Assembly: GCA_002269645.1 (NCBI GenBank)
Contig: NIVC01000100.1
Coordinates: 310,001-374,000, forward strand
Length of the DNA stretch: 64,000 nucleotides
Direction of reading: 5' to 3'
DNA from: Macrostomum lignano
Lineage: Eukaryota
A program made the position numbers and the translations under genes. The notes under the pieces are model-generated. The model searched no databases and was not told the DNA's origin. It saw nothing but the letters and a program-made list of their open reading frames with translations. Shown piece after piece: positions 30,213 through 59,747 of this stretch (position 1 is its first letter; each line of letters starts with the position of its first letter).

Positions 30213-30249
30213 GTGAGAATGCTGAGAAATTCAAAATGTTTTTGGAGCC

Positions 30250-30620: not shown

Positions 30621-30641
30621 CGTCACGCGCTGCAATTTCAG

Positions 30642-31264: not shown

Positions 31265-32430
31265 TAGAAACTACAAACTGCCTACAAACTTTAAGCTACA
31301 AACTGCATATAAACTATAAGCTACAAACTACCTATAAACTATAAGCTACAAACTACCTATAAACTATAAGCTACAAACTACCTACAAACTTTAAGCTACA
31401 AACTGCATATAAACTATAAGCTACAAACTACCTATATATAAACTATAAGCTACAAACTACCTATAAACTATAAGCTACAAACTACCTATAAACTATAAGC
31501 TACAAACTGCCTATAAACTATAAGCTACAAACTGCCTATAAAACTATAAGCTACAAACTGCCTATAAACTATAAGCTACAAACTACCTATAAACTATAAG
31601 CTACAAACTGCCTATAAACTATAAGCTACAAACTACCTATAAACTATAAGCTACAAACTACCTATAAACTATAAGCTACAAACTACCTATAAACTATAAG
31701 CTACAAACTACCTACAAACTTTAAGCTACAAACTGCATATAAACTATAAGCTACAAACTACCTATAAACTATAAGCTACAAACTACCTATAAACTATAAG
31801 CTACAAACTACCTATAAACTATAAGCTACAAACTACCTACAAACTTTAAGCTACAAACTGCATATAAACTATAAGCTACAAACTACCTATAAACTATAAG
31901 CTACAAACTACCTACAAACTTTAAGCTACAAACTGCATATAAACTATAAGCTACAAACTACCTATAAACTATAAGCTACAAACTGCCTATAAACTATAAG
32001 CTACAAACTACCTATAAACTATAAGCTACAAACTGCCTATAAACTATAAGCTACAAACTACCTATAAACTATAAGCTACAAACTGCCTATAAACTATAAG
32101 CTACAAACTGCATATAAACTATAAGCTACAAACTACCTATAAACTATAAGCTACAAACTACCTATAAACTATAAGCTACAAACTGCCTATAAACTATAAG
32201 CTACAAACTACCTATAAACTATAAGCTACAAACTGCATATAAACTATAAGCTACAAACTACCTATAAACTATAAGCTACAAACTACCTATAAACTATAAG
32301 CTACACACTACCTACAAACTTTAAGCTACAAACTGCATATAAACTATAAGCTACAAACTACCTATAAACTATAAGCTACAAACTACCTACAAACTTTAAG
32401 CTACAAACTGCGTATAAACTACAAGCTACC
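31265..32430. repeat. 25-bp intronic minisatellite (CCTATAAACTATAAGCTACAAACTA)
   Basis: About 46 tandem units. Confidence 0.97.
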
Positions 32431-33023
32431 AAACTACAAAAAACCTTTCCCTAATTAAATTTACAGCCAGTGGTATGTTAGTCAACAATTTTATTAAGTT
32501 GACTATTGAATTTTTTAACTGGCAAATTTTTACAGTGATGTAAATTAATCAGCGCATTAATTGTTTTCATAATGAAGCTTCTATTCTAAAGAGTAATTGC
32601 TCACTGTGTGAGTACCAGTAGTTTTTTTTCGCTTGCGGTTAATGCGTTCTAACACATTTCAGATTCTATACTTTGACTACGTTTGTTTAAATGGAGCGCT
32701 AAAAATTCGCTTATTTAAACCGAGACAGCAGTCTGGATTTTCCATTTCTTGCATTAAAAGTGAATTCACGCCACTAAAAAGGTCACGTGTACTTTTAGAG
32801 AACACGTGCAAAATATAATATTTACTTTAGAAAGTGCGTGTGCACTTCATAAAGTACGCGTGTACTTCGAAAGTGCGCATGTACTCTAAAAGTACCAGTA
32901 CATGTACTTTAATTATGTACACAATGTTTTAGCAGCTTCCGCCAAAGTACGCGTCTTTAATGTGCATCTGTACTTTTGTATCTAAAAAAATATTTATTCC
33001 TTTTATCCCTTTCATTTCCACAG

Positions 33024-33559
33024 GCATGATTATCGATCCAATATTGGCTACGTACACTGTCTCGGGCGTGTCAGCCAGAGAAGTGGCCGAATACTTCTGG
33101 GATTTGCACTACCGCCTTGACTGGGAGCACACTCTCGACTCCGCTCCAGTCGTAGTCGATACGTTAGCTGCGGACACTGTCCTGCTGCATCAAATCTATC
33201 GCCGGGTCTGGCCGACAGCTCAACGCGATGCGGTCTTTTGGTCGCACATTCGACACGACGAACGGCGCACAATGGTAGTGAATTATAGCACCGATTATAA
33301 GGCTCCGCCACTCATTAATAGTCGCCAGCGTATGCGATTGAATGTCAGCATGATCTGCGAGACCGAGCTGCCGCCCGAGCTGCCGGCGGACCGTCGGCAT
33401 ATTCGCTGCCGAATTCAGTACGCGGCTAACATTAATCCAGGCGGCTGGGCTCCCGCCACCGTCCTCAGGCAGGTGGCGAAACGGGAATATCCGAAATTTC
33501 TACGCCGTTTCACCGCCTATTGCATCGACAAGGTTAAGAATAGGCCTGTGCAGCTGTGA
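33024..33559 (+). CDS. CERT1: CERT1 exon 3 (START domain); spliced protein 676 aa
   Basis: GMIIDPILAT, RRVWPTAQRD, NINPGGWAPATVLRQVAKREYPKFLRRFT match the CERT START domain; acceptor CACAG at 33023. Confidence 0.95.
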
Positions 33560-39357: not shown

Positions 39358-42300
39358 ACTACTATATGAACCCGTATCCGTTGATTTTGGAGGTGGGGTG
39401 GGTGTCAACCCTCCTTGCCTCTCATTGGCTGGCGCCCCGATCACTAGGTGATCGATACCCGTATCGATATCGGCGCTCGGCACGCGCGCGCGCCGCAGGC
39501 GCGTGGCGCCAAGCGCCGCAGGCGCACCCTCCCGATATTAGATCCCAATAAATCAATCAGATCCCAAATCAATCAGATCCCAAGCGCACCCTCCAGAGCA
39601 GCAGGCGTCCATGCAGCAGGCGCCCCTCCCCGCCGCACGCGCCCTCCCCGACATGTATGCCGCAGGCACCCTCCCCGCCTCAGGCGCCCCTCCCGATATG
39701 TATGCGCACTCTCCCTATATGTACACCGATATGTATGCAGCAGGCGCCCCGAGTGTACACTCTCCCGATATGTGTGTACACCGATATGTAGTCATCGATA
39801 CGGGCCTCTTCCCCTCTCTCACCTACATCTCAACTAGCGAAATCGAACCCAGGTCGCGCCCATACTAGGACACTACACGGTTGTGGGGTATAGGGAGCGA
39901 GAAGTTTCAACCCTAACGCTGACGCAGCCCTGTACAATGAGCGTGTACGGGCAGAAAGGGGGGGTGGACAGAGAGACGGCCACTAGGTTATTATACTGTT
40001 GAAGCATAGAGAGCGAGAAGTTTTAACCCCGATGCTGACGCAGCCCTGTACACTGAGCGTGTACGGGCAGAGGGTGGGTGGAAAGAGATGTGAATAACAC
40101 AGCCTGCTGCAGGAGCCGGATAGAGAGGCGCATGCTAGGACAGAGAGGTAGTGTGAGTCACACACACTCCACAGAGAAAGCCATACAGAGGATAGAGAGC
40201 TCCCTCCCCAGTTGCAGGGGACAGAGAGGCAGGCAGGGTATGCAGGGGCATGCGAACCGTCAAGGGGCCACGCGAGGATAGAGTGGAGGAGCAGAGATGT
40301 GTTTGGACAGAGAGCCAGCCACGTGTGCGTAGTGTGAGGGAACAGAAACATATGGAGCAGGAGGGAGATAGGAAGCAAACGCGCAGGGTAAGGGAGCCAC
40401 ACAGGGCGGTACAGTGAGACACGGGCAGGGGTGGAGCCGTGCGTGGACAGAGCTGAACGGCACGGTCAGCTGCAGGAATAGGATGATAGAGAGGCGCGGA
40501 GGGGGACAGAGAGCAGTGTGCAGGGGTAGGCAGCCACGCAGGCTGGGGAACAGAGAGGCGCGTGTCAGCCAGTTGCAGCCCGGGACAGAGAAGTATGAAG
40601 GGGGGCCTGGGACAGAGTTCGAGCAAGGCACAGAGGTAGGGTCCTGTAGCTATGTATAGGCAGGGAGCCACGCGAGGGCAGGACAGGGGAGCAGACATGC
40701 AAGTTGCATGCAAGGCCAGAGAGGTGTGCGCGGAGGGAGACAGAGAGCAGTGTGTAGGGGTAGGTAACAGCAAACTTTAGTAGCGGCGCGTGCGGGGACG
40801 GAGAAACCAGTCAGAGCATACAGAGACGTTACAGAGAGGTACACAAGCAGAGACCAAAGCGAGCAGAGCACATGTGTAGGGACAGAGACGTGAGGGAGAA
40901 TCGACCAAAACACGCTATGTATTTTCAAAAGTTGGTTTTAGTGCAACATGTTTAATAGTGGGTAGTATAATAGTATGTACATAGTAGGTATAATAGTAGT
41001 AATAATAGTAAGCATATTAGCCCAAAAGGTAGACTAAAACAGGCTAAACTGTGTGTACGCATCCTCATCACCCCACAAGCCCCCTCTCCCGCCAGACTCA
41101 CTCTACCAAACCCTCCTGTATTGCTGCATGAAGGAAAATATAGTGTAAAAATACAGATCTTAACCGTCAGACCGCTGAAATCAGGGCACACTAGAGGGGG
41201 TTTCGGGGTCTGCATGCTCTATGTAAGCTGCTTGAGGAGGTTCCAAGGGCGTTGTGAGGGTTTCCATTATGTTTTGAAAAAAAAAACTAGGGGCTTAAAT
41301 ACAACGTTTTATTCAAAAGTAGGTTATTTTAATGAAATAGCTGACACAATCATTGTCGAGAGTAGAAATTTTTATAAGAAACCAGGCATTTTAGCAAAAA
41401 TAAACCTTCAAACCACATAAAATTGAATAAAAAGCAGACATTTTCAATTATAAACCGCAAGTATTTTAATAGAAAAGTAAGCAAACAAGGCACAAAACCA
41501 GCAAATTTTACCTTTTTATTTTAATGTTACTGATAAGGTAGAGAGTAGAAACTTGTGAGCTGTACGGAGTTAGAAAGTATTAACCATTATGTATCGTATG
41601 AATTATTAGTTCAGTACCAGCCATTGGTCAAGCGAGCATTTATGAAGTTATTACGAGTGATGAAGGGATAGAGAGCTATATACAGGAAGACAGTATCCTT
41701 CTAAACCACCACGAACAGATTGCTAATAGAGATAAGCTTTGTCTGTGTGCAGTATGAGTAAGCGAAGGCGGGGCAAATACTTTTCCACATGCCGGACAGA
41801 ACAGTATTGTGCTAGGATTTCTCTCGAAATCGCGGTACGTTACTAGTTTTTATCACACCATCCAGATGCGTCAACTAGTCAGCAGTAGTCATTTATATGT
41901 TATTAGAACTTACAAACCCAGGTCAAGTAAATATTACAAAGAGTATATTACGTACACACGCCAACTCCGAATACCAAGCCATACTAGTCTACTTGCAGTG
42001 CTCCTGGAGGGAAGGGACGGCGGGGTGTACATCCGGCAGGGTGGGCGTCCAGCGAGTGTACATCTGACAGGATGGGTGTTCAGCAAGTGTACATCTGACA
42101 GGGTGGGCGTTCAGCAAGTGTACCTTCAGCGTCGAGTAGGTGTACACCCGTCAGTGGGAACTCAGCCCCTCCCACCAATGTCGTGTGCATGCGGTTAGTC
42201 AGTATAGTGGTGGGGTAGACGGTGCAGGAAGGAAACCCAGATGCTGACGCTACCCTGTACAGCGAGCAACCAACCCTCCTGTAGCAGGAGGGGGACAGAG

Positions 42301-42429
42301 AGTGCGTGGAGGCAGTAGGAGATAGAGGACGCTACCCGGCATGTCGCAGCACGCGGCGCGGGACAGAGAGGCAGTGTGTAAGTCACCCCCGCGGAGGGAC
42401 AGAGAGCTACCCTGGCAGGAGGCGCGGGA
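39358..42429 (+). repeat. Left arm of the foldback element
   Basis: Reverse complement of the right arm; mirrored ORF pairs, e.g. 41809-42198(+) and 43179-43568(-). Confidence 0.97.
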
Positions 42430-42947
42430 CAGAGAGGCGGTGAATCACACCCCACGGAGAGAGCCGTACAACGAGCTTCCCCACCCGAGTCCGGTAAATA
42501 TTACAGAGTATTACGTGCACACGCCAGCCCTGAATACCAAGCCATACTAGTCTACCTGCAGTGCTCCCAGAGGGAAGGGATGGTCAGGAGTTACACACCA
42601 AGAATGCATTCATACAAAGAGTACACAACTCGAGCCCAGACACCAAGTCACAGTCTACTTACAGTAGAGATGGTAGATTAATAGCAAGATTATATTACAA
42701 TTAGACCTCCCTAGCACATGAGGAGTGAAATTCAATAATAATTGAATTCAATAATAATACAACATTTAGACGTAGTAATTTAATTACAAAATACCACTAA
42801 CACTGAGCCAACGAATTGTAGGTTACAAAGGAGTTGCCACTCATATGGAAAGCCAGTATAATGCAGGTGTATATTATTAAAACATAGACAAAAACGATGC
42901 AGACGTATATACACACTATTGATTTTGTACATGTACATTTCGGCATA

Positions 42948-45900
42948 TCCCGCGCCTCCTGCCAGGGTAGCTCTCTGTCCCTCCGCGGGGGTGACTTACA
43001 CACTGCCTCTCTGTCCCGCGCCGCGTGCTGCGACATGCCGGGTAGCGTCCTCTATCTCCTACTGCCTCCACGCACTCTCTGTCCCCCTCCTGCTACAGGA
43101 GGGTTGGTTGCTCGCTGTACAGGGTAGCGTCAGCATCTGGGTTTCCTTCCTGCACCGTCTACCCCACCACTATACTGACTAACCGCATGCACACGACATT
43201 GGTGGGAGGGGCTGAGTTCCCACTGACGGGTGTACACCTACTCGACGCTGAAGGTACACTTGCTGAACGCCCACCCTGTCAGATGTACACTTGCTGAACA
43301 CCCATCCTGTCAGATGTACACTCGCTGGACGCCCACCCTGCCGGATGTACACCCCGCCGTCCCTTCCCTCCAGGAGCACTGCAAGTAGACTAGTATGGCT
43401 TGGTATTCGGAGTTGGCGTGTGTACGTAATATACTCTTTGTAATATTTACTTGACCTGGGTTTGTAAGTTCTAATAACATATAAATGACTACTGCTGACT
43501 AGTTGACGCATCTGGATGGTGTGATAAAAACTAGTAACGTACCGCGATTTCGAGAGAAATCCTAGCACAATACTGTTCTGTCCGGCATGTGGAAAAGTAT
43601 TTGCCCCGCCTTCGCTTACTCATACTGCACACAGACAAAGCTTATCTCTATTAGCAATCTGTTCGTGGTGGTTCAGAAGGACACTGTCTTCCTGTATATA
43701 GCTCTCTATCCCTTCATCACTCGTAATAACTTCATAAATGCTCGCTTGACCAATGGCTGGTACTGAACTAATAATTCATACGATACATAATGGTTAATAC
43801 TTTCTAACTCCGTACAGCTCACAAGTTTCTACTCTCTACCTTATCAGTAACATTAAAATAAAAAGGTAAAATTTGCTGGTTTTGTGCCTTGTTTGCTTAC
43901 TTTTCTATTAAAATACTTGCGGTTTATAATTGAAAATGTCTGCTTTTTATTCAATTTTATGTGGTTTGAAGGTTTATTTTTGCTAAAATGCCTGGTTTCT
44001 TATAAAAATTTCTACTCTCGACAATGATTGTGTCAGCTATTTCATTAAAATAACCTACTTTTGAATAAAACGTTGTATTTAAGCCCTAGTTTTTTTTTTC
44101 AAAACATAATGGAAACCCTCACAACGCCCTTGGAACCTCCTCAAGCAGCTTACATAGAGCATGCAGACCCCGAAACCCCCTCTAGTGTGCCCTGATTTCA
44201 GCGGTCTGACGGTTAAGATCTGTATTTTTACACTATATTTTCCTTCATGCAGCAATACAGGAGGGTTTGGTAGAGTGAGTCTGGCGGGAGAGGGGGCTTG
44301 TGGGGTGATGAGGATGCGTACACACAGTTTAGCCTGTTTTAGTCTACCTTTTGGGCTAATATGCTTACTATTATTACTACTATTATACCTACTATGTACA
44401 TACTATTATACTACCCACTATTAAACATGTTGCACTAAAACCAACTTTTGAAAATACATAGCGTGTTTTGGTCGATTCTCCCTCACGTCTCTGTCCCTAC
44501 ACATGTGCTCTGCTCGCTTTGGTCTCTGCTTGTGTACCTCTCTGTAACGTCTCTGTATGCTCTGACTGGTTTCTCCGTCCCCGCACGCGCCGCTACTAAA
44601 GTTTGCTGTTACCTACCCCTACACACTGCTCTCTGTCTCCCTCCGCGCACACCTCTCTGGCCTTGCATGCAACTTGCATGTCTGCTCCCCTGTCCTGCCC
44701 TCGCGTGGCTCCCTGCCTATACATAGCTACAGGACCCTACCTCTGTGCCTTGCTCGGAACTCTGTCCCAGGCCCCCCTTCATACTTCTCTGTCCCGGGCT
44801 GCAACTGGCTGACACGCGCCTCTCTGTTCCCCAGCCTGCGTGGCTGCCTACCCCTGCACACTGCTCTCTGTCCCCCTCCGCGCCTCTCTATCATCCTATT
44901 CCTGCAGCTGACCGTGCCGTTCAGCTCTGTCCACGCACGGCTCCACCCCTGCCCGTGTCTCACTGTACCGCCCTGTGTGGCTCCCTTACCCTGCGCGTTT
45001 GCTTCCTATCTCCCTCCTGCTCCATATGTTTCTGTTCCCTCACACTACGCACACGTGGCTGGCTCTCTGTCCAAACACATCTCTGCTCCTCCACTCTATC
45101 CTCGCGTGGCCCCTTGACGGTTCGCATGCCCCTGCATACCCTGCCTGCCTCTCTGTCCCCTGCAACTGGGGAGGGAGCTCTCTATCCTCTGTATGGCTTT
45201 CTCTGTGGAGTGTGTGTGACTCACACTACCTCTCTGTCCTAGCATGCGCCTCTCTATCCGGCTCCTGCAGCAGGCTGTGTTATTCACATCTCTTTCCACC
45301 CACCCTCTGCCCGTACACGCTCAGTGTACAGGGCTGCGTCAGCATCGGGGTTAAAACTTCTCGCTCTCTATGCTTCAACAGTATAATAACCTAGTGGCCG
45401 TCTCTCTGTCCACCCCCCTTTCTGCCCGTACACGCTCATTGTACAGGGCTGCGTCAGCGTTAGGGTTGAAACTTCTCGCTCCCTATACCCCACAACCGTG
45501 TAGTGTCCTAGTATGGGCGCGACCTGGGTTCGATTTCGCTAGTTGAGATGTAGGTGAGAGAGGGGAAGAGGCCCGTATCGATGACTACATATCGGTGTAC
45601 ACACATATCGGGAGAGTGTACACTCGGGGCGCCTGCTGCATACATATCGGTGTACATATAGGGAGAGTGCGCATACATATCGGGAGGGGCGCCTGAGGCG
45701 GGGAGGGTGCCTGCGGCATACATGTCGGGGGAGGGCGCGTGCGGCGGGGAGGGGCGCCTGCTGCATGGACGCCTGCTGCTCTGGAGGGTGCGCTTGGGAT
45801 CTGATTGATTTGGGATCTGATTGATTTGGGATCTGATTGATTTGGGATCTGATTGATTTATTGGGATCTAATATCGGGAGGGTGCGCCTGCGGCGCTTGG

Positions 45901-46051
45901 CGCCACGCGCCTGCGGCGCGCGCGCGTGCCGAGCGCCGATATCGATACGGGTATCGATCACCTAGTGATCGGGGCGCCAGCCAATGAGAGGCGAGGAGGG
46001 TTGACACCCACCCCACCTCCAAAATCAACGGATACGGGTTCATATAGTAGT
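42948..46051 (-). repeat. Right arm of the foldback element
   Basis: Differs from the left arm by a few SNPs and two extra copies of a 16-bp unit (TGGGATCTGATTGATT). Confidence 0.97.
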
Positions 46052-46188
46052 AATAACAAGCTTTTCCAACTCTTGCTTTAAGTCTAGAGTGTCAGTTTTG
46101 ACTAATGCCAAGTGTATTTTAGTTTAAATTTAGAATTTAGAGTACATTGACAGTTAAACAAAATCAAATAGAATGTAAATAAACATGT

Positions 46189-48391
46189 TGATGTAACCGC
46201 CCTTGTCGCCGGTCCGCTCCGTAGAGAGACGAACGCATGACTAGAGGGGGCAATGACCGTAGGCTGCCTATGACCGGGCAATGGCCTGACGGACCTCCAG
46301 CACCAGACTGTCCCGCCCACATGATTGATAGCTTTGGTAGCGCTTCGTGACCAGAGGGCCAAGGACCCACATGGACCCCACCTGTAGCCAAGGTGCAATA
46401 GTTGGTCACTCGGTCATAGTATGACCGAGTGGCTGCCACCACTCTATGTGACCTGGCGCACCTGGATCTTTCTACCAGACCTCTCGAGGCTAGAGCCCCG
46501 CCTGGGATGGTTACCAGGAGATTTAGGCTAACAGGGGAGACACATGCAGCCGAGTACAGGGACTCTGCTTGGGGCATGATCGGGAACTCTGGGCTCAATC
46601 TGGAGGATTTCTCAGCAGGGGATCCTTTGTGGCTGTGAGCGAGGCTAACTTGCGACTTTGATTACTAAGAGTAGTATGAGGCGAACATGTACTGTCTATA
46701 GTTTAGATTGCTCAGGGCGAAGGGACGCGTCAGCATGGGGTTGCAACCTTCCTACTGCCATTCTGTGCCAAGACTCGCTAATCCCTCTACTGCACGCACA
46801 CGCGGCCCCGCAGCACGCACTCACAGGCGGGCTGTGCACGGGGAGAGGCCATTAGCTTACCCAAACTTCCTTATGCTTTGCCACCCCGGGAGAAAGGCTT
46901 AGCAAGCCATGAGAGAAATGATGGTGAAAGAGTAAATAATGATGGAGTTAGTTAATAGTTAATAATTAGGCCCTTAGGCGAATAATCAGGCAATTAGGCA
47001 GCTTCACTATTGAGTAAAATACAGCAAAAGGTTACGGTATCACAATTGGCTCAGCTCTCTAATCAGACAATGGAAAAATAGGCAAACCCCGGATAAGCAA
47101 GGCGATTAGAGCACAAATTAGTAATAGGAACTTACCGGCAGCTGCACAGAGAGAGAGAGAGGCGGAGTGACCGAGGGCGGCTGTAGGCTGCAGTCAGGCA
47201 GACGGTGAAGCGGCGATGCGCTGAAGCGACGAGGCGCTGATGTAGATCAGGCGATGCTGATGATGCTGGGCGGTATCAGACCGCTGGCCGATAGGCGAGC
47301 TCACTTGGGGAGCTAAGGATAACTTGGCGGTAACAGACCGCGGACCGGCAGGGATTCGTCTTATAGACGAATGGGTCAGAACTCAATCTGACAGCAAGTC
47401 CAAAGAAGGACGAGGAGAGGAAAAGTTGAGGATTCTCATGCCGAAATCGCTTCCTTTTATAAACCTCACAGCCGCCTCCTCAAGGTCGTTACCATGGCTC
47501 CCTCTCTCTGATTGGCTGCCGGCAGAATGACGTCAGAATGAGTCATGATGAGAAGCATGATACCGGCATAGCAACATGAGAAATCGGGAAATTGCGCAAT
47601 CCGGAGGTGGGGTGGGGGATAATTGGCGCAGCGGGTGGTCGCGAAAGTGTTGCGCAAGCAAACATTGAGAACAATAGGGCTGGGGTCGAGAACAAAGGAA
47701 TTGGAAATTGGGGATAATTGGAGAGAACTGAGAACAATGGAAAAGTAAACATTGGGGAAAAGGTGATAATTAGGTGCGAAAACGAGAACAAAAGAAAGAG
47801 AAAATCGGAGAAAATGTGATAATTGGTGGGGGTTGAGAGAACAAAAGAATCAAAAACGAGAACAATAGAAGCGGAGGTGGGGTGGGTGTCGCATGAGAAA
47901 TTTGGGAAGGAGAACAATGGCGTGAGAAAAGGTTGCGCAAGAGAGGGGGATGAGTCATCGATGAGTCACCGAGGGGGGGAAGGGGTCACACGACTTGCGT
48001 CACCGTTTGGGAGTTTTGGAGGGGATGGGGAGACGGTGAGCACACAAAATACTGTAAGTAGACACAGGGAAAGAGGGGACAGCGCAGGAAAAGAGTGCAG
48101 AGGGAGACAAAAAGAGGGGGGATAGGGAAAGTACAGGAAGAATAGGGCGAAAAACAGAAGAGATAGGGTAGAGGGGGAGGTACAGAGAGGGTAGGGAGCT
48201 CCGGAAAGGCAGGTGTGGCGGCAGGGGAGACGGAACCAAGGCAGCAGGAGGGGTGCAGCAGAGCGGGAGTCTCCAGGCCTGGTCGGAGACCTGGCCGAGT
48301 CTCGACGGCTCTGTGCAGGGGGTGCACAGGATAGGAGGCACTTTCAAAAAGTTCCCATGCCCTATCCCGCGACCAGAGCGTGGTTACATCA
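46189..48391 (-). repeat. 3' LTR (2203 bp)
   Basis: Differs from the 5' LTR by about 6-8 substitutions and 3 small indels that I could see. Confidence 0.97.
47455..47970 (-). promoter_or_regulatory. LTR promoter/enhancer: TATAAAA, CCAAT, CRE, AP-1, C/EBP sites and GAGAACAA repeats (also in the 5' LTR at ~58290-58810)
   Basis: TATA 47455-47461; ATTGG 47511; TGACGTCA 47528; TGAGTCA 47539, 47951, 47962; ATTGCGCAAT 47591; TTGCGCAA 47650, 47933. Confidence 0.7.
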
Positions 48392-48408
48392 TACCCCCAC
48401 TGCCTTTT
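48392..48408 (-). other. Polypurine tract AAAAGGCAGTGGGGGTA
   Basis: Directly abuts the 3' LTR on the element sense strand. Confidence 0.8.
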
Positions 48409-49446
48409 GTGATGGAACTGGTTCCGTCATCACCACTGCCCAACATGGAACCACACAGACGGGAGCAGGATCTCAACCAAACTGGAAACTACAGAATTAA
48501 CAAACCGCGAACGGGGAGTGGGGGAAAAGACGATATAATAGAGGAGATAGCAATAAATTCACTGAATGAAATACATAGGTTGAAGTACAATACAGAATTT
48601 CAAAAATTTCAACTGTTGCTGTGGCTAAAGTGGGAAGGGGGAAACACAGGCAGCGCAATAATAGGGAGAAAAATATCGGATTGTCAATAATAAATTATCA
48701 TAATTGGATAGAAGCGCAGCTGGGGGAGAGAGGAAACGGGGAAGGGTGAGGGAGGTAGGGAAAAAAAGAAGGGGTTGTTGCTAGCACACAGCCAAGGGCA
48801 GAGCCTCGGGGAGAATGACAATTACACCGGGGGGAAAATAGCGCAGTAAATTAATAAACTAATTTCGCCGGGAGTTCAACCGCACGGAGGCCTAGCATCC
48901 TCGAAGGCTCGGACCCCCCTTCAGCCAGTCAGGGAGCTTCGGGGCGATCGGTTGTAGGCTGGGAGGCGCCGCGCCGGGTGCTGGCCACTGTATAAAAGGC
49001 GCCACTGATGACGGGAGCCGGCTGCCTGCAATCTGCACCGAGTCGCAGTTCCTAACCAAGGCCCTCAGCGCGATCTTCCAAACTATACAACTACTCGGTA
49101 AGTCCCATCACCAATCTGATTTCTTTTCACCTATACGTTAAACGATATCTACCCACTTGCCATGCCTTTCATATTAAACTGAGCCAACTGTAGTAGTACA
49201 ATATGTCTTTTCTTACGGTAATAAGAGTGAGAGGCCAACACAGACTTATTTTTATGAATTTGAGTGACGCACAACAAATACTCATATATTATTAGTAAAG
49301 GTGGCATATTAGAAAACAAGTTATTATTAGAAAAATAGTAAAATATTATAAAATTAGGGGCATACACAGACACACACACAAGCCAAAGGGTGAGAATGCC
49401 ATCCGGGCCGGCCGGCAGGTGCCACTCCGCGGGGCGTGCAGCGGCC

Positions 49447-50799
49447 TCACTCGAGGTCGGCCTCGCGGTTGAGCTGATAGGGGCCATAGGCGGCGACTTG
49501 AGCCATGGCACGGGCCCATGCTTCCACATATCGCTGGGCGGCCGCCGCCGTCAAGACGACGCGGTGGCAGCTACTGGGCAGGATATCATTAGGCAAGACA
49601 CCCCTCAGCTGCGGCAGAGTGGGAATGCCTAAAGCTTGGCACTGCACCACGAACGCGGCGTTGCGCGCTTGCTGCAGACGAGTGAGCGTCGGGGCGGAGA
49701 GCGGCGGCTGGGCGATGGCGAAATATTGCATCGAGCCGCGCGGCACCTCAGCCAGGCCCGCGTAGCCAGGCTCCACGTCGCCCAGGGCCGCCAACACCCA
49801 GCCGCAGCGCCTGTTGAATTGACTCGACAGGATGGCCGCCCACGCCACCGTGGCAAATGGGGCGTAGAGCAGTGGCGCGGCTGCAGGGGCTGAGGCTGCG
49901 AGGATGCCATCATGGAGAATGAGGGTGTCTTCCCACTCGGCGCCTGCGCATAGGAAAGTCCACAGCAGGCCCGGCAGGTCCGCCGGCAACATTCCCCAGA
50001 GGCTGGCCATGCTGGTCAGGCCGAGCAGCAGCCGGGCGCGTTGCGTCGAGGAGAGCTGCCGGCTCATCAGCGAGGAGGCCGCACAGCTCACGACCACCTT
50101 TTTGTACACAGGACGCTCGTTAGGATTGAAAATGGTCTTGAGAGCCGCGCACGACGGTGGCCGGGCCGTTAGATGGGACGGCTCGTCCTCCACCACATGC
50201 CGCAGGAATTTGGAGGCCTGTCGCACGAGGTCGCTGATGGCGTACTTGTACGGATGCTGCGCCGCCACCTCCACGTACATCAGGAGCGTGCTGTCCACCA
50301 GACCTTGCAGGGCCGCCTTGGACAGGATAAGCAGGCAGGGCCTGTCCAGATTGTCCCGCATTTGTCGTTCTAGCGTTGAATGCCGATCCTCAGCCTGCAT
50401 GGGGCCATAGTAGGGCTCGGGCCCCACCCAGTGGATCAGATCTCTAGCTGTAGTCGAGAGTCCGCCAGCCGTTTGACCCCAATCTACTTCATCTCGTTGT
50501 AGGGCGATGTCGACACTCCGCCGGCTGCTGGGCAGGACGTCCCGCAGGCGGCCGGCAGCCTCGCTGAATTCGGCCACCACATCCGAGAGGTCGTCATCTT
50601 CGGTGCTGGCAGAGCTGTCTGTCTCGGCGTCGTCATCGAGAGGGGCGACCCGGGCGGCTGACGCTACCGGTGACGCGGGGTCATCTTCCGCCTCCTGGCT
50701 GCCGTCCCATGGCCGCTTCCGACTGACCGGACTGGCAGGCCGCTCTGACGGTGAGTCTGGGCGCAGCCGAATGCGATTGACGCTGGGTTTGTTGTCCAT
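49447..50799 (-). CDS. 450-aa orphan accessory ORF of the LTR element; N-terminal NLS-like RKRP and acidic tract
   Basis: Uninterrupted GC-rich ORF; TATAAGA at 50891-50897 and CCAAT at 50918 and 51005 upstream. No recognised domain, signal peptide or clear TM segment. Confidence 0.8.
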   Translation of the reverse strand: MDNKPSVNRIRLRPDSPSERPASPVSRKRPWDGSQEAEDDPASPVASAARVAPLDDDAETDSSASTEDDDLSDVVAEFSEAAGRLRDVLPSSRRSVDIALQRDEVDWGQTAGGLSTTARDLIHWVGPEPYYGPMQAEDRHSTLERQMRDNLDRPCLLILSKAALQGLVDSTLLMYVEVAAQHPYKYAISDLVRQASKFLRHVVEDEPSHLTARPPSCAALKTIFNPNERPVYKKVVVSCAASSLMSRQLSSTQRARLLLGLTSMASLWGMLPADLPGLLWTFLCAGAEWEDTLILHDGILAASAPAAAPLLYAPFATVAWAAILSSQFNRRCGWVLAALGDVEPGYAGLAEVPRGSMQYFAIAQPPLSAPTLTRLQQARNAAFVVQCQALGIPTLPQLRGVLPNDILPSSCHRVVLTAAAAQRYVEAWARAMAQVAAYGPYQLNREADLE

Positions 50800-51376
50800 A
50801 AATAGCCGAATAACTTTCCGGGCACTTGGCTGGTCGAATGGAGGAATTGTTTCTCAAATTGACGGTCTCTACTCCGGTAGGTGCGGGTCCTCTTATAACG
50901 TTGGAGGCTGACTCCTCATTGGTTGAGCACGTTGGGAGACACACAGGCTGAGGCCGGGGTCACCGTTGGCTTGGGACCGCTCTTTCCAGTCTCCGTGTGT
51001 GCTGATTGGCTGGTTCCGCCGCTCCCTGTGTTCCTCACCCTTGAGCAGGGGGCAGATCCGAGACCGCTTCCGTTCGCGCCCGCGGCGGATCCGTACTCCG
51101 GCCGACCGAGATCGCACTCCCATCTCACATACACACATTCAGATCAGGCACACCAGTTAATTTGGTTAGTAGGAGTAGCAGAAGGATTTGGGAGATTAGA
51201 CTCCAGAAGATGAATGATGAAGCGGCCCAACTCTTTTCCATTTCTTCCCTCAACGCCACACACACACGCAGCCCTCATTCACGTCTCCGAAACCCTCATA
51301 AACTTAATAGCCGAAAGAGTTTGAAAGAAGAATTAATCATTAATTTGACGAACTACCATAGCAGAGAAAGGGGAAA

Positions 51377-51612
51377 CTACCACCATCTTGATGCATTACT
51401 AAAGAGGAGAAAAAGAAAGAAGAATTGCCACCATTTTGGGAGGGGTTACTAGGGAAAACTGCCACCATTTGCACTTTCATCAGAGAAGAGAAAACGAAAG
51501 ACTACCACCATTTTGGGTGTACTGTTAAAAAAGAAGGCGGGGAGGAAAACTGCCACCACTTTGAGTGTTTTATTAAAGGGAGGGGGAGAAAAAAGCTACC
51601 ACTACTTGACCA
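51377..51612 (-). repeat. Array of six PBS/LTR-junction-like motifs (consensus CAAAATGGTGGCAG on the element strand)
   Basis: CT(G/A)CCACCAT(T/C)TTG-like copies at 51377, 51425, 51459, 51502, 51550 and 51596, matching 57018-57031. Confidence 0.75.
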
Positions 51613-51753
51613 CCTCGAGCCCAAGAGAGGGAGAAAGAATGAAGAAATCCCCAAGAAGGTCACTACCACACGCCGTAAAATCCCCATCTATCTACATCCT
51701 AACACCCGGCTAGTTCCCCACTCCTATTTCATCCCTTAAACTCTCGCTTTCAG

Positions 51754-52160
51754 GATTCCGGCCGTTAGTAGCTGAGCCCATCCTCGAAGAAGAGTCTGAT
51801 TACGAAGCGCCCGAGGACAGCCATTCGGAGCCAGACGCCCCCTCTGGTTTAGGGCCGGCCGCGCCATCAGGCAACGTCGGCGCCGCGGCTCCAGAGCCCT
51901 GCGACCGCCGAGCCGCCAGCGAAACAGCGTCCGGGGACGGTTGGCATCCGGCGCCACCGCCACTGTCAGCCCGCGCGCACTCTCAGCCGCCGGTCGCCGC
52001 GGTGGCGCCCGTGGCTGCCGCTCCACAGCCCTCGCCAGCCCCTGTGGTGGAGACCGACGGCTCCTGGCACTGGGTCGTGCTGGCGACGGCCCTGATAGCC
52101 GGTCTCACCATGCACTGGCTGCTGCTCTTGGAGCTGTTTCTGCGGCTTCCCAACTGCTGA
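51754..52160 (+). CDS. Antisense terminal exon encoding an acidic/Pro-Ala-rich segment and a C-terminal TM helix
   Basis: Acceptor CTCTCGCTTTCAG; 135 open codons ending ...GSWHWVVLATALIAGLTMHWLLLLELFLRLPNC*; AATAAA at 52268. Not in the ORF track because there is no early ATG. Confidence 0.5.
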
Positions 52161-52744
52161 TGCTAGATGCTCTAGCGCTAACTTTTCCTACTAATTCTAA
52201 GCTATCGGCTCTCATAACTAACTCCAATTACTGGTTACTCATTAAATCTATGCTTAGCCCACTCTAAAATAAACATTGCTCCCCATCTGCCTGATAAACT
52301 TAATTACATTAAATGTCCCCCCTATTGCCTCATCGAAACCAATTAAAGGTTTCCCAAAATCTGACTTTCACAAGGTGTGAACAAACACACGAAATCGGAC
52401 CTAAAGGTGCTAATTTCTACGGTCCCAGAATTCTATTGTCCCAGAAAATCTTGAACAGCGGGGCAGGACCTCCTGTGGGGCAGACCCAGAGAAATTATTC
52501 TAGTTTCCGAGATAATATTTACTGAAAGGGAATTAACGCATACCGTACGGGCCTAATTTTCGAGCTAAAATCTTGGAAATTTAAACAACACCAACGAGCA
52601 CGAGGTCACAACATACATTCGGATAATAGAGGGCATACGTAAATACGCGAAAAGCGGTTCCAACGGGGCAAAACGAGCAAAATTTCGACACGCGAATCGG
52701 GGGGGGGGGATTAAGCAATCACTGGCTAGCTACCAATCTGTCAC

Positions 52745-53269
52745 TCAGCGGGGGTCGAATGGGAGACTCACACCTAGCAAGTAAACCTTTTCTGTTCGAT
52801 AGTCTATGATAGCATGCGTACTGGCTAGAAAAGCACTACCCAGGAGGGAAACTGCTGCTGAATTGCCAACGACTAGAAAGAGGATTCTCACCTCTTCTAG
52901 CCCAATAACTGCTGTGGGGGTGGCCTGGCCTAGCATCTCTAATTCATTGCCCGTGTAGGACACGGCCTTCACACATGGGGGCTCCAAGGCCTCCACACTC
53001 TGTCCGGTAATTTTAGTAAAGTCTTTGACTGTTAGCAAAGACAGCGCACTGCCCCCATCCACCAGGAGGCGGGTGGGAACATTCTCAATTGGCAACTCTA
53101 CAACAATATCTCTCCCGCGTTGTCCTCTAGCTGGTCTTGGCTGATAGAAATCGGGTACCTTCTCAAATCTAAACTTCTTGCTGGGCGGACTTGGCAGGTT
53201 AATCTGGGCCCTAGAGAGGGAACGGGGCTGAGTTCGGGCCGGGCCATTCAGCCCTCCCACGGGTTTCCC
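52745..53269 (-). CDS. pro: Retropepsin-type protease ORF, -1 frame relative to gag, ending in a stop right after PR
   Basis: RLLVDGGSALSLL (D-G-G at the catalytic D-T/S-G position); SLLGSAFL second motif; overlaps the gag end. Confidence 0.85.
   Translation of the reverse strand, partial: GKPVGGLNGPARTQPRSLSRAQINLPSPPSKKFRFEKVPDFYQPRPARGQRGRDIVVELPIENVPTRLLVDGGSALSLLTVKDFTKITGQSVEALEPPCVKAVSYTGNELEMLGQATPTAVIGLEEVRILFLVVGNSAAVSLLGSAFLASTHAIIDYRTEKVYLLGVSLPFDPR
53225..53269 (-). promoter_or_regulatory. -1 ribosomal frameshift signal: G GGA AAC plus downstream GGGCTGA/TCAGCCC stem
   Basis: Slippery heptamer at 53263-53269 in the correct gag phase; 7-bp stem 53225-53231/53248-53254; possible pseudoknot via GGCCC/GGGCC. 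Confidence 0.75.
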
Positions 53270-54687
53270 GAACCCGGAGGCTCTTCAGGCGTGGGAGGAG
53301 GGGGCATCAGGGCTTGCGCGCGCAGCTGGGCGAGCCTCTCCTGCCTCTCCCTGGTAGCCTCGTCTAACATCTCCCTGCCCCAATCCTCTAAATCTTGCCT
53401 ATGGCGATCGGGTGGCGCACGAAGCTGCAACTGCTGCTGCTGCACACCCGGCGCCGGCGGCGTGGGCGCCTCCTGAATTGCAAGCGGCGGGGGCTGGGAT
53501 TGGCGCCAGTTGCTATTAGAGCCGCCCTGCCCCCGTCTCCAGTTCCTGTTGGGAGTGGCGGGGCGAGGGGGCCTCATCTGCTGGGGCAGCTGGGCAACAG
53601 ACTCTGCTGTCACCCTCATGGTTTCATTGAGCTGCACCAGCTGGTTGCGCAGGTCCTTTTGCGTTTGCTCTAGCGCGCCCAACCTCTCCTGCATCTCTGA
53701 TAGGCCGTCACCGTCCTCCTCCGTCTCGTCAGCTTCCTGGTTCACCATCCTGACCCACTTGCGAGGGGGCCTGGGCGGCTGCTGAGGTTGCAGACGGACT
53801 TCAGCGCGGGACTCAGACTTGGGTGGGCCACCACTATCCCATTTCCCAGCCAAGTCGGCGGCCTCTAACAGGGCTTGCTGCTGTTCTAGAACCTGCTCGA
53901 TCGTCTGCCAGCGTCGGCTCAACAGATCTTGTCTGACCTGGCGGGGGAGCCTGGCGTGTTCCAAATAGGTATACACGATCTCCTGTTCTCTCTGCTCACC
54001 CTGAATCTGAGGAAACATGGCCGTTATCTGAGATCTGATCATAGCGGCAAAAGCACTATGTGATTGGCCTGGTTTCTGACTCAGATTCTTCAGCTTATTT
54101 CTCTTAGCCAGGTCAGTGTTGGCCTCGCCTAACTGTTCTCCTAATCTCGCTACGAACTGCTCAAATGGCAATTGCCCGTCCAATCCTAAGGCTAGGTTCT
54201 GAAATTCACCTGGAAGGTGGGAGATAAGTACTTGCTTCCTAGCCTGATCTCCTACAGTTCTCTCTGCGTCCAGCTTGTAGACTATTCTCTCTACCCATTG
54301 CACAAAACAGTGTTCGCCGGGAGAGAACTTCTCTACGTAGATTTTCGGCCTCTGAGCCTCTTGGCCCATGTTCAGCTGGTTAAACGCATTGGCTATAGCA
54401 GCAACTAAGTCTCCTAGCTGCGGGACTGCCTGAGGAGGATTCTGGGCTGCGTCCGGGGGAGCAGCGGCGGCTGCTGCCTCACCCTGATTGGGAGCGGGAG
54501 CTGCTACTCCTTCATCTGGTTCCTCAACTACTACTGCTTCTGGAGGCTGAGGGACCTGGTTACCAGCGGCTGCGGCCATTGCGGCTGCGGGGGCGGCAAC
54601 TGCTGGGGTGTCAACGGCCGAGGGTGGTTGGCCAGGGGCGTCTGCGCACACAGCTTCTACGACCCTATCTCCACGCGCCCGTGACAT
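53248..54687 (-). CDS. gag: Gag (479 aa, Ty3/Gypsy-type capsid, no zinc knuckle)
   Basis: KIYVEKFSPGEHCFVQWVERI...LISHLPG and MHR-like LKNLSQKPGQSHSAFAAMI; coiled coil; position between PBS and protease. Confidence 0.85.
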   Translation of the reverse strand: MSRARGDRVVEAVCADAPGQPPSAVDTPAVAAPAAAMAAAAGNQVPQPPEAVVVEEPDEGVAAPAPNQGEAAAAAAPPDAAQNPPQAVPQLGDLVAAIANAFNQLNMGQEAQRPKIYVEKFSPGEHCFVQWVERIVYKLDAERTVGDQARKQVLISHLPGEFQNLALGLDGQLPFEQFVARLGEQLGEANTDLAKRNKLKNLSQKPGQSHSAFAAMIRSQITAMFPQIQGEQREQEIVYTYLEHARLPRQVRQDLLSRRWQTIEQVLEQQQALLEAADLAGKWDSGGPPKSESRAEVRLQPQQPPRPPRKWVRMVNQEADETEEDGDGLSEMQERLGALEQTQKDLRNQLVQLNETMRVTAESVAQLPQQMRPPRPATPNRNWRRGQGGSNSNWRQSQPPPLAIQEAPTPPAPGVQQQQLQLRAPPDRHRQDLEDWGREMLDEATRERQERLAQLRAQALMPPPPTPEEPPGSGNPWEG

Positions 54688-57007
54688 GTGAATGCCGGAT
54701 AGCTGGGGGAGTACCCACTACCGGGAAGGAAAAGAAAAGGAAACCGGGGCAACTACAGGTAAAAACCGAATAAGTTGACCCGAAACACACGCACTCACAC
54801 ACACAAATACAGACAAAACTCACACACTTGCGGCGTCGAAGAAAACAAATTGAAAAACGGGTGTCTCCACATAATTTCATTTAGGCAGTCCTAACGGCTT
54901 CACTCGGCAAAGCACACAAACTCAAACTGCGGCTACCACTACCAATTGTCTATGGCACATCCTGACAGGGAAAATTGGCTATTCAGAGAGACTTGACCTT
55001 CATTCTGCGGCCATGCTAGGGAACCCAAATGCCGACCGTAAACGGACTTACGGCACCTGTACAAATTCTCCCCTAGGGTTGCGCGCCGGACCCCATTTCC
55101 TTAAGAAAGCCACTACGAAGAAGCGTTGGCGCCTGGACCCAAAACTCAAGTGGCGGGAGCAATCCCCATGGAGGTCCTCCCACTTTATTGCCCTTGCACA
55201 ACCGGAAAACCGTCGGCGCCCAGAGGGGCTTCCACTCTCAGGACTACCAATCTTGTACACGCGGCTTCACAAAAGGTGGGAATCCAACTCCCCTACGTCT
55301 AGCAGAATCCACAAAAACCAAAATCTCCCCTTTCTGTTCAGAGCGAAGGCGCGCAGCGGGAGTCCAGACTAAACTCTCCCCGAAGTTTTCAGGTTAGGTG
55401 GATTACAAGCCTGAAACTCTCGCCCGCTTCCCTAAGATAAACAGACCTAAGTGAGTATCTTCCTGAAATGCTTGTCCCTCCGATACTCCACCTTTGCTGC
55501 AGCTCGAAATAGCATACTTGGGACCTTTATCTGATGGCGGAGAAAGTCCTACAGTTGTCAGCCTCTCCACTTTACTGTACTTGAACGCCCGGTTCTACCA
55601 GGAGACAGCGGTACCTCCATCTAGGTTATTCCAAGTTGCCAGAGACGTCAACCCGTCTTATTGACCTTGCGGGGCACTGGGGTGGCACTCAATGTACCGG
55701 GGCCTTACATTAGGGGACTGCATGCAACCCTGCGTCTAAGCGCTTAGTGGGCTGCAGTGGCCAGAGGGGAAAGAGTTGCGCAATAGCGCCTTCCTGGGCC
55801 AGGCTGACAAGTCGGGCAGGAGCGCCGTTCTACCGGGTCGGGCTGATTGGCACACCCACCTCCCCTATCAGACTGACGGCAGGGGAAGAAATTACTAAAG
55901 GAGGAGAATGCAGCAGGAAAAATTACGAGATCACTGGGGACCACCAGACTTCCAGTACACCATTCCAATACTCACTGAACTCCACTACCAATAGGAGACT
56001 ATGGGATCTACTATTTCCAGCCACTACACCAGCCCAAATGCAACCAAAGCAGTTACTACCGGGTCTGCAATGCAGTGGGGAGAGCCAGCAGACACGTTGG
56101 GATCGAATCCCAGCCATAAGGGCACCAGGGGTTACCGCAGAATTCAGGTCCGGGCTGATCGCAGGTATTCCATAGGAGGTGACACTTTTTTAGCCCGAGA
56201 TTTTTGAGTCACACTAATACCCTACAGAGATACAATCACACCGCTATTCCCATTCCTGCGAGACTTTGATATCTCCCAATGTTTCCAAGGCCATGACTAC
56301 TGCTTCCCTTACTTTGCATATATAGCGAATTCTCCATAGCCCTTGATAGCTGTTCATTCTAATGGACAAACAAAACACGCTCCGGTCTCTACGCATTTCT
56401 AGGATTAACTGTTACACTCCCCCGAGTAAAAGAAAGAGGTAGGACAATGGAAAGAAATGCTTTGCTTCCAGCTTCCCTGTGCTTGCGTGATGAGGCTTCC
56501 GTACCTGGCTGGCTGTCCACCTCAACACTCACACAGTTCCGCTGTAGGCTAGGCGAGAGAAAGAAAGGGAGGGGAAATAAATCATATTACCGTGGAATAG
56601 AAAGTGAGTCCGGAAATTCACTTTCGCAGTTCTTCACACACTCCGTTACCAGGTAGCTATTCTGATTGTAATCAAATCCGCTCGTCTACCACTTCACACT
56701 TGCTAGCGCTGAAACTCATCGGCTAAATTAATTTTAAATTGAATCAGGGGCTTTTTGCGAATGAATGAATTTTGAACTTGAATGAATTGAATGAATTCGC
56801 AGCCCGAAAAATTTGAAAAATTACATTAATATTTTTGGATTTTTGTTGCCTCACGCCATGGGAGAAGAGAATGACGCTCGGCGATTTTTATAATTGGTAG
56901 ATCTAGACATGGCACACTTTGCGCTTCGGCCACCATTCTGAGGGATGCCACAGGTGCGCTTGTCACATCTAAACCACCAGTCCGAAACTCAGCGCTGTTT
57001 GCACCAG

Positions 57008-57025
57008 ATCCCACCGCTGCCACCA
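57008..57025 (-). other. Primer-binding site TGGTGGCAGCGGTGGGAT, complementary to the 3' end of tRNA-Leu
   Basis: 18-nt match to ...ATCCCACCGCTGCCA-CCA (metazoan tRNA-Leu AAG/TAG type), 3 nt inside the 5' LTR boundary. Confidence 0.9.
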
Positions 57026-57028
57026 TTT

Positions 57029-59226
57029 TGATGTAACCGCCCTTGTCGCCGGTCCGCTCCGTAGAGAGACGAACGCATGACTAGAGGGGGCAATGACCGT
57101 AGGCTGCCTATGACCGGGCAATGGCCTGACGGACCTCCAGCACCAGACTGTCCCGCCCACATGATTGATAGCTTTGGTAGCGCTTCGTGACCAGAGGGCC
57201 AAGGACCCACATGGACCCCACCTGTAGCCAAGGTGCAATAGTTGGTCACTCGGTCATAGTATGACCGAGTGGCTGCCACCACTCTATGTGACCTGGCGCA
57301 CCTGGATCTTTCTACCAGACCTCTCGAGGCTAGAGCCCCGCCTGGGATGGTTACCAGATTTAGGCTAACAGGGGAGACACATGCAGCCGAGTACAGGGAC
57401 TCTGCTTGGGGCATGATCGGGAACTCTGGGCTCAATCTGGAGGATTTCTCAGCAGGGGATCCTTTGTGGCTGTGAGCGAGGCTAACTTGCGACTTTGATT
57501 ACTAAGAGTAGTATGAGGCGAACATGTACTGTCTATAGTTTAGATTGCTCAGGGCGAAGGGACGCGTCAGCATGGGGTTGCAACCTTCCTACTGCCATTC
57601 TGTGCCAAGACTCGCTAATCCCTCTACTGCACGCACACGCGGCCCCGCAGCACGCACTCACAGGCGGGCTGTGCACGGGGAGAGGCCATTAGCTTACCCA
57701 AACTTCCTTATGCTTTGCCACCCCGGGAGAAAGGCTTAGCAAGCCATGAGAGAAATGATGGTGAAAGAGTAAATAATGATGGAGTTAGTTAATAGTTAAT
57801 AATTAGGCCCTTAGGCGAATAATCAGGCAATTAGGCAGCTTCACTATTGAGTAAAATACAGCAAAAGGTTACGGTATCACAATTGGCTCAGCTCTCTAAT
57901 CAGACAATGGAAAAATAGGCAAACCCCGGATAAGCAAGGCGATTAGAGCACAAATTAGTAATAGGAACTTACCGGCAGCTGCACAGAGAGAGAGAGAGGC
58001 GGAGTGACCGAGGGCGGCTGTAGGCTGCAGTCAGGCAGACGGTGAAGCGGCGATGCGCTGAAGCGACGAGGCGCTGATGTAGATCAGGCGATGCTGATGA
58101 TGCTGGGCGGTATCAGACCGCTGGCCGATAGGCGAGCTCACTTGGGGAGCTAAGGATAACTTGGCGGTAACAGACCGCGGACCGGCAGGGATTCGTCTTA
58201 TAGACGAATGGGTCAGAACTCAATCTGACAGCAAGTCCAAAGAAGGACGAGGAGAGGAAAAGTTGAGGATTCTCATGCCGAAATCGCTTCCTTTTATAGA
58301 CCTCACAGCCGCCTCCTCAAGGTCGTTACCATGGCTCCCTCTCTCTGATTGGCTGCCGGCAGAATGACGTCAGAATGAGTCATGATGAGAAGCATGATAC
58401 CGGCATAGCAACATGAGAAATCGGGAAATTGCGCAATCCGGAGGTGGGGTGGGGGATAATTGGCGCAGCGGGTGGTCGCGAAAGTGTTGCGCAAGCAAAC
58501 ATTGAGAACAATAGGGCTGGGGTCGAGAACAAAGGAATTGGAAATCGGGGATAATTGGGGAGAACTGAGAACAATGGAAAAGTAAACATTGGGGAAAAGG
58601 TGATAATTAGGTGCGAAAACGAGAACAAAAGAAAGAGAAAATCGGAGAAAATGTGATAATTGGTGGGGGTTGAAAGAACAAAAGAATCAAAAACGAGAAC
58701 AATAGAAGCGGAGGTGGGGTGGGTGTCGCATGAGAAATTTGGGAAGGAGAACAATGGCGTGAGAAAAGGTTGCGCAAGAGAGGGGGATGAGTCATCGATG
58801 AGTCACCGAGGGGGGAAGGGGTCACACGACTTGCGTCACCGTTTGGGAGTTTGAGAGGGGATGGGGAGACGGTGAGCACACAAAATACTGTAAGTAGACA
58901 CAGGGAAAGAGGGGACAGCGCAGGAAAAGAGTGCAGAGGGAGACAAAAAGAGGGGGATAGGGAAAGTACAGGAAGAATAGGGCGAAAAACAGAAGAGATA
59001 GGGTAGAGGGGGAGGTACAGAGAGGGTAGGGAGCTCCGGAAAGGCAGGTGTGGCGGCAGGGGAGACGGAACCAAGGCAGCAGGAGGGGTGCAGCAGAGCG
59101 GGAGTCTCCAGGCCTGGTCGGAGACCTGGCCGAGTCTCGACGGCTCTGTGCAGGGGGTGCACGGGATAGGAGGCACTTTCAAAAAGTTCCCATGCCCTAT
59201 CCCGCGACCAGAGCGTGGTTACATCA
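57029..59226 (-). repeat. 5' LTR (2198 bp)
   Basis: Direct repeat of 46189-48391; adjacent to the PBS. Confidence 0.97.
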
Positions 59227-59747
59227 ATGTATGATAATCTTTAGCTCAATGTTCACAAAGTTCTGAAAATAAATGAAAAGTAGTTAGACTTAGAGTAGGC
59301 TATTCTAAGTACTATTTGGCAGTATACTAAAAAACTATGCAAACTATTTAGGCTATAGAAACTACCAATATCACAAAACGTTACAGAGATATATCTCAAA
59401 AAGCTGTATAGCAATATAATTTTCCATTTTCTATCAGTAAAGAAATTAAAAGTCAAATAAAATACCAATATCATTACCTTATTGGCTTAGCTTTTACATT
59501 GCCAAGCCTCTGAGTCATAGAATTTGCTGAAGTGTGTAGACTATGTTTTGAGTTTGTAAAATAATTGAAATATCAATTGAAACCAAAAGTACAAAAAGTG
59601 TAGAACTTAAATTAAATTACATCTAGGTAAGAAAAAAACAGGGTGCCAATTTGGCATATGGGTCCAAATCCAGAATACCAAATTAAAGTAAACATTTCAT
59701 GATATGCACTATTAAGCCTATTTCTTCTTAAACTACCTTAATCACAG

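Follow-up and report, generated by a model that had tools for sequence, protein, structure and literature searches.

Two incomplete families of Ty3/Gypsy long terminal repeat (LTR) retrotransposon in the flatworm Macrostomum lignano are probably the two halves of a single element: family A carries the capsid and protease and its partner, P, carries the reverse transcriptase (RT), RNase H and integrase, and they would complement each other in one particle. Family A was encountered in a 64,000-nucleotide stretch of assembly GCA_002269645.1 (contig NIVC01000100.1, positions 310,001 to 374,000), hereafter the window, to which all unprefixed coordinates refer. A sister pair, B and PB, has the same division of genes. 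The wider reading, somewhat less probable, is of a segmented (bipartite) Ty3/Gypsy lineage in which the capsid was duplicated and the genome split at the protease|RT border, giving two genomes that depend on each other, draw on a common LTR pool, set Gag:Pol by copy number, diversified as pairs and carry an orphan protein family of unrecognised fold.

Results

Family A encodes Gag and protease

The window copy of family A is an LTR element of 13,038 bp on the minus strand (46189-59226) with an interior of 8637 bp. The 5' LTR (57029..59226, minus strand, 2198 bp), held in common with P, and the 3' LTR (46189..48391, minus strand, 2203 bp) are 99.45% identical (7 substitutions and 5 gap columns over 2203 positions); their ends are TGATGTAACC...GGTTACATCA. 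A target-site duplication (TSD), ATGT, was read directly from the flanks (46185..46188, second copy 59227-59230), and since the same flanking DNA and ATGT surround a solo LTR on contig C4128, the borders of the element are confirmed. The 18-nt primer-binding site (PBS; 57008..57025, minus strand) corresponds to the 3' end of genomic tRNA-Leu(AAG/TAG) genes (12 pattern matches; all four tested were called tRNA-Leu), and the polypurine tract (PPT; 48392..48408, minus strand) is also found in P. TG...CA LTR ends, a tRNA PBS, a PPT and a short TSD are hallmarks of Ty3/Gypsy, and alignment, flanks and tRNA genes agree with the initial annotation, which had described by eye a 13-kb element with LTRs about 99.5% identical, an ATGT duplication and an 18-nt tRNA-Leu PBS. 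A 2.3-kb 5' leader (54688..57007, minus strand) is common to A and P and likely holds putative packaging and translation signals.

The gag frame (53248..54687, minus strand, 479 residues) is stop-free, with a capsid region at about residues 95-290 and no CCHC knuckle; its first codons, to about 54497, are common to A and P, and the ratio of nonsynonymous to synonymous substitution rates (dN/dS) is 0.09 between the window copy and three others. The aspartic protease frame (52745..53284, minus strand) has a DGGS motif with its Asp codon at 53057-53059 and stops at the end of the protease domain. Two copies score 38.6 and 42.0 bits with a protease profile trained on 14 ordinary Gypsy elements of the same genome. 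A slippery heptamer, G GGA AAC (53263..53269, minus strand), predicts a -1 frameshift into protease, and family B has a similar heptamer, G GAA AAC, at the same place. The frameshift signal had been called intact but is only partly shown, because the hairpin behind the A heptamer is no more stable than shuffled sequences (z 0.24). Pfam gave only sub-threshold hints for 14 open reading frames (ORFs), namely PNMA (E 0.028) and gag-asp_protease (E 0.026), and returned no RT, RNase H, integrase or env family; the env-like fusogen of a complex retrovirus or errantivirus was not matched among them. Six-frame searches of the A interior with own-genome Gypsy profiles gave -6.4 bits for RT-RNase H and -3.8 bits for integrase, while the same profiles scored 601 and 308 bits on P; the described stop-free gag-pro without RT, RNase H or integrase was thus upheld by both methods.

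Genome searches scored the best candidates only, and counts refer to assembly loci. At least 40 copies of the gag-pro region (the best 40 of 149 candidates) reach 93-96% identity or more, and A protease occurs at 58 loci. An exact search with the LTR-end/PBS junction found 57 places, of which 46 lie on contigs with A protease, nine lead into P and two are unassigned; the initial reading of a recently mobile, multi-copy family is borne out. No pol frame lies within the element at any of the 18 fetched loci holding family A sequence, which speaks against the alternative that the window copy is a one-off deletion among pol-bearing relatives, and the best 150 of 159 A protease matches all fall in frames of 229 residues or less, none in a frame of pol length. 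Two forms of A exist, one of 13 kb with an orphan cassette and one of 11.3 kb without window 49380-51260. The window copy belongs to a sub-lineage, its LTR being about 97.5% identical to other LTRs and its orphan allele diverged (about 76% DNA identity); the 14 fetched loci nearest to its LTR are solo LTRs, ten with exact 4-bp TSDs.

Two further observations concern family A sequence. Copies on C546, C254, C4958 and C3414 stand in tandem, apparently with one LTR in common. Separately, a 3-kb repeat with short inverted ends (L059:8312-9947 with L060:1-1416 on C93; also on C2239, C566 and C94) holds A protease together with the DNA that follows it, as an internally deleted copy of 75-84% identity. 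This repeat was apparently formed when a non-autonomous DNA transposon captured the sequence, and it makes up dozens of the listed A protease matches.

P carries pol and lacks protease

Nine copies of P have window 59226-54497 (5' LTR, PBS, leader and first gag codons) at 95.5% identity, and also 49220-46189 (3' tail, PPT and 3' LTR); a tenth locus, C1114, is cut by a contig end and stands outside the nine scored. The P interior is a single 1553-codon frame in which a capsid-like region and a spacer are followed by RT, RNase H and integrase, with the Gypsy-type Pfam order RVT_1, RT_RNaseH, Integrase_H2C2, rve that is found in P and not in the window element. The protease profile gave at most -1.0 bits in all nine copies, and D[TSG]G occurs nowhere upstream of RT in P or PB. 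In ordinary Gypsy elements this motif lies 428-448 residues before YxDD in 14 of 14 cases; in P the expected site of the catalytic motif falls within the capsid region. P has no frameshift or CCHC region. A post-protease spacer profile scores 10-19 bits on P and PB and does not match A or B, and with protease in A only and spacer in P only, A and P therefore meet at the protease|spacer border.

An RT search (best 147 of 4435 candidates) returned ten P sequences, two PB at 72% identity, and then ordinary elements at 49% or less. All 18 ordinary elements fetched from this search, and one further element, contain the protease motif, and those with PBS read have LTR ends that differ from the A/P ends. 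The tRNA-Leu PBS has 534 further matches in the genome. Four ordinary Gypsy families (L110, L121, L122 and L124) have two to three tandem PBS-like tRNA-Leu motifs 40-90 bp apart, and paired matches were seen in the genome PBS search too. Among the best matches in this fragmented assembly no element of either lineage is complete in protease and RT, and the autonomous set of gag, protease, RT, RNase H and integrase is found in neither A, nor any of nine P copies, nor either of two PB copies. One 4578-bp contig from run X15, which is DNA-like although its type is not on record, spans the P interior with nine differences, and because it does so independently P is not an assembly artefact. Depth on that contig is 162 on the P interior against 1261 on the shared leader, rough figures that agree with 9 of 57 junctions. 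The helper that had been postulated, with the same LTR ends and PBS and with RT, RNase H and integrase, was therefore found in P, but not as a complete element; as P is without the protease that A carries, the relation looks reciprocal rather than that of a satellite to a helper.

A and P were both inserted recently and draw on one LTR pool. Eleven elements with both LTRs read (seven A, four P) have 1-9 substitutions per ~2200 between their LTRs; their TSDs comprise six matching duplications of 4 bp, none of 5 bp and five mismatches, which include two tandem arrangements and one probable misjoin, and two additional P copies have matching 4-bp flanks. P and A LTRs are 97.8-100% identical (means 99.4-99.6), like LTRs within a group, and with the window copy set aside the range between A and P copies is 99.2-100%. 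P is not a clade in the LTR tree and needs five changes, with few branches well supported.

A sister pair repeats the split

Family B is related to A through Gag (36-46% identical) and protease (39-40%), and its 2.0-kb LTRs cannot be aligned to those of A save at the PBS end. It encodes gag and a frameshifted protease with DSGS (51.6 bits with the own-genome profile) and is negative for the RT and integrase profiles. Of 20 B junctions, 14 are on contigs with B gag, two lead into PB and four are truncated. PB has the order capsid, spacer, RT, RNase H, integrase and is 56-65% identical to P; the protease profile found no match in either of its two copies, both of which shift frame inside the capsid region. 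Four of five B/PB elements have 4-bp TSDs. Two copies of family B have LINE-like (long interspersed nuclear element) insertions within their 3' LTRs (L047:821-3996 and L053:1276-6360).

In trees built from sequences of this genome only, the capsids group as ((A,B),(P,PB)) with 100/100 support against ten ordinary Gags, the RT tree groups P with PB and the protease tree groups A with B. Since all four capsids make one clade the split is old, and the tree places the capsid duplication before the divergence of A and B, for which long branches urge some caution. The capsid regions of A and P are only about 25% identical, so A is not a simple deletion of P. Furthermore, PB carries the last 39 codons of the B orphan gene, as expected if the halves recombine. 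A short V-R/N-x-hydrophobic motif, which may mark cleavage sites, stands after the capsid in the Gag of A and B and before RT in P and PB; one ordinary element also has it before RT, but in two others it was not found at that place.

Accessory genes

The space in A where pol would be expected had been described as holding accessory genes, a 450-residue orphan and an antisense exon. Both are present and real, and gag, the orphan (ORF450) and the antisense exon are under purifying selection; the orphan cassette (49380-51260), however, is optional and deleted in many copies. ORF450 (49447..50799, minus strand) has its own predicted CCAAT/TATA promoter at ~50890-50922 and a dN/dS of 0.11 between alleles and 0.07 in the core. 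The ends of the cassette deletion are two short AC repeats (junction read in two of four copies checked), and an orphan match is present on the contigs of 32 of the 58 protease loci. A homologue with 23% identity occupies the same place in two B copies, whose seven changes are too few for an informative dN/dS. Among 1.84 billion representatives ORF450 has two unnamed homologue clusters with one full-length member, P0003, at 32% identity, while a 5.8-billion-protein set held no homologue of ORF450, protease or Gag and the ESM Atlas gave no usable match. ORF450 matches no Pfam family, and its best PDB sequence hit has E 0.37. A first structural model was poor (predicted local distance difference test score, pLDDT, 48); a second reached pLDDT 70 and a predicted template modelling score of 0.72, and Foldseek, at E 0.001, matched it to nothing in the PDB or a viral library. 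ORF450, with its basic N-terminal patch and own promoter, might be a dispensable nuclear helper or counter-defence protein acting in trans from cassette-bearing copies. An isolated broken cassette copy on C201 (L017:2393-4144, about 72% identical, with no LTR or gag nearby) has its start at a border shared with the cassette deletion; the RT beside it was considered as a helper and proved to be a LINE.

The antisense gene lies on the plus strand and is predicted to have three exons. Its TATA box at 48991 and a non-coding exon 1 that runs to 49097 are within the 3' tail common to P, exon 2 (50503..50750, ATG at 50507) overlaps ORF450 on the opposite strand, and exon 3 (51754..52160, with AATAAA at 52268) encodes an acidic/Pro-rich stretch and a C-terminal hydrophobic helix, the only such helix in the predicted spliced product of 216 residues, which would accordingly be a membrane protein. 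The antisense exon has a dN/dS of 0.20 (p 1.4e-6), in three of four comparisons, and the frame is whole in three of seven other copies. Runs X1, X2 and X6 are presumed RNA and available as contigs only, from which expression is not measurable. A GT..AG skip in X2 (short side 28 nt) supports the joint of exons 1 and 2 (49097-50503), with loose ends in X2 and X6 from two studies; the joint of exons 2 and 3 was not seen in the run contigs. The exon 2 donor has the same phase in both alleles, and a longer exon 2 of 370 nt was rejected, its donor lying beyond a stop codon in the other allele. The start of the predicted protein (50507-50560) is rich in Arg, Ser and Leu, free of acidic residues and organelle-targeting-like by eye, which may be incidental because it overlaps ORF450 codons.

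Surroundings of the element

An inverted repeat (39358-46051) with ~3-kb arms, 99-100% complementary, and a 518-nt spacer lies about 140 bp from the element and is a foldback element or an assembly feature. A host gene with PH and START domains, resembling a ceramide-transfer protein, is broken up by tandem repeats at 29175-33559, and an identical direct repeat (14599-14898 and 18419-18718, 3820 bp apart) belongs to a longer duplication. The broken pol of a different Gypsy family, with RT and integrase matches, lies at 7832-10106; it was rejected as a relative of P, being only 34% (RT) and 27% (integrase) identical to it.

Discussion

A and P together make up a full retrotransposon gene set, as do B and PB; A has gag-pro under selection without RT or integrase, and its partner P matches it in PBS, LTR termini and period of activity. 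From these sequence relations we infer mutual dependence. The common LTR would make A and P RNAs in the same cells, A giving Gag and, through the -1 frameshift, Gag-protease, and P one capsid-RT-RNase H-integrase polyprotein whose capsid domain would take it into A-Gag particles, where A protease would release RT and integrase. Both RNAs would be packaged, primed by tRNA-Leu, copied and integrated, template switching would keep the LTRs as one pool, and the excess of A over P, about 5-7 to 1, would stand in for the frameshift that normally sets Gag:Pol.

Several points weigh against such complementation. The P frame is unbroken in only two of nine copies and in neither PB copy, and P, having its own capsid region, could in principle assemble alone. 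Families of ordinary Gypsy elements that have a tRNA-Leu PBS are numerous and could lend protease. The A protease itself has DGG rather than D[TS]G and a dN/dS of 0.12 that is not significant (p 0.06), and of the four positive controls for the protease profile (88-140 bits) three are likely to be closely related to sequences used in training, and L123 (88 bits) is the only independent one. Copy counts include duplicated contigs. Contigs of four presumed-RNA runs cover gag-pro; sequence specific to P is covered only patchily in X1 and hardly at all in X2 and X6, which is weak evidence either way.

DIRS elements reverse transcribe without a protease, and P likewise might be autonomous by relying on a host protease or an uncut polyprotein, with A a satellite or partial mutualist that matures its own Gag. 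Such one-way dependence, which resembles the satellite-and-helper model of the initial annotation, is unlikely. It would fit the retention in P of a capsid region fused in frame to pol, and the wheat element Sabrina_SA keeps gag-pro next to a complete partner (PMC9744471, in excerpt). Against it, protease is gone exactly and only from the pol half in both pairs and kept on the gag half across about 60% sequence divergence, and P has no frameshift/CCHC region for making excess Gag. Ty1 and Ty3 need their own protease to transpose, from which a need of the particle for protease processing is taken. Slightly less probable again is a third, complete element serving both A and P, whether missing from the assembly or an unrelated ordinary Gypsy from which P would take protease and A would take RT and integrase. 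The assembly is fragmented, many contigs end in A/P repeats and the PBS is common among ordinary Gypsy elements; yet A or P accounts for 55 of the 57 junctions, and B or PB for 16 of 20, with the remaining four truncated, no RT falls between 72% and 49% identity among the best 147 of 4435 candidates, the ordinary elements with PBS read have other LTR ends, and the DNA-like X15 contig crosses P without protease. That A and P arose recently from a single ordinary element, by deletion or as chimeras of the assembly, is very improbable and largely refuted by the capsid tree and the X15 contig: C2925 and C3880 do have flanks in common and C2436 has the flanks of two other loci, but the A and P capsids are 25% identical and each nearer its sister-pair counterpart, both families have distinct TSDs and an independent contig runs across P.

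If the two-part reading of A and P is true, a pair in which neither member is complete would be a genome-resident instance of segmentation, a step in virus evolution that has long been debated. It makes testable whether copy number can replace a frameshift in setting Gag:Pol, and how two RNAs stay co-packaged. Mining tools that start from RT would log only the rare P, miss the commoner A and not flag the absent protease.

Gag-only LTR elements mobilised in trans are known as plant TR-GAG, mammalian MaLR and zebrafish Bhikhari, and because animal examples exist the pol-less half alone is not novel. Unlike A, those elements are not known to have a frameshifted protease that is lacking in the partner, and their helpers are complete. 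A full-text literature search, with Repbase, Dfam and subscription journals outside its reach, found no obligate two-part LTR retrotransposon; the printed partnerships it found are one-way, a complete element carrying an incomplete one.

The comparisons that follow draw on excerpts of the papers cited. Wheat RLG_Sabrina_SA, called 'semi-autonomous' for its gag-pro, is paired with RLG_Wilma, which is described as complete (PMC9744471). Sabrina_SA is like A in being a Gypsy element with intact gag-pro, no RT or integrase and orphan ORFs in variants, and like A and P the two wheat elements have the same PBS and LTR termini and a long co-evolution (PMC9744471). The partner in the semi-autonomous type is fully autonomous; Wilma is complete and has almost no sequence in common with Sabrina (PMC9744471), whereas P is without protease and has whole LTRs, leader and gag start in common with A. 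RLG_Quinta, called partially mutualistic with RLG_Cereba, resembles A in supplying Gag, in an unknown extra domain, in a diverged GAG and in LTRs partly common to the pair, but Cereba, unlike P, encodes all proteins including protease (PMC11302176), so that dependence there is one-way. Barley BARE2 resembles P in bearing pol and borrowing one missing function in trans, and differs in being a Copia element without Gag whose donor, BARE1, is complete (PMC9744471).

Among animals, bdelloid LTR retrotransposons combine gag and pol with an ORF3 of env, GDSL esterase or DEDDy exonuclease type (PMC5408684); they are like A in having extra ORFs, and ORF450 differs from these ORF3 proteins in matching no family or fold. 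A flatworm LTR survey starts from RT, and a word search finds neither protease, gag nor non-autonomous in it (PMC12801592); its five supplements, in which long entries are shown incompletely, gave no match to the A LTR ends or to the start of Gag.

The nearest parallel for complementary components, by analogy, is provided by the bipartite florendoviruses, such as Vitis vinifera B virus with its components A and B (PMC10377300). Multipartite genomes are, according to the excerpt of that paper, otherwise not found among Ortervirales, and segmentation in this group is thus otherwise described only for these putative bipartite viruses. They differ from A and P in being plant caulimovirids without LTRs or integrase, yet they have in common with them complementary, partly redundant ORFs and a split inferred from genome sequence only (PMC10377300).

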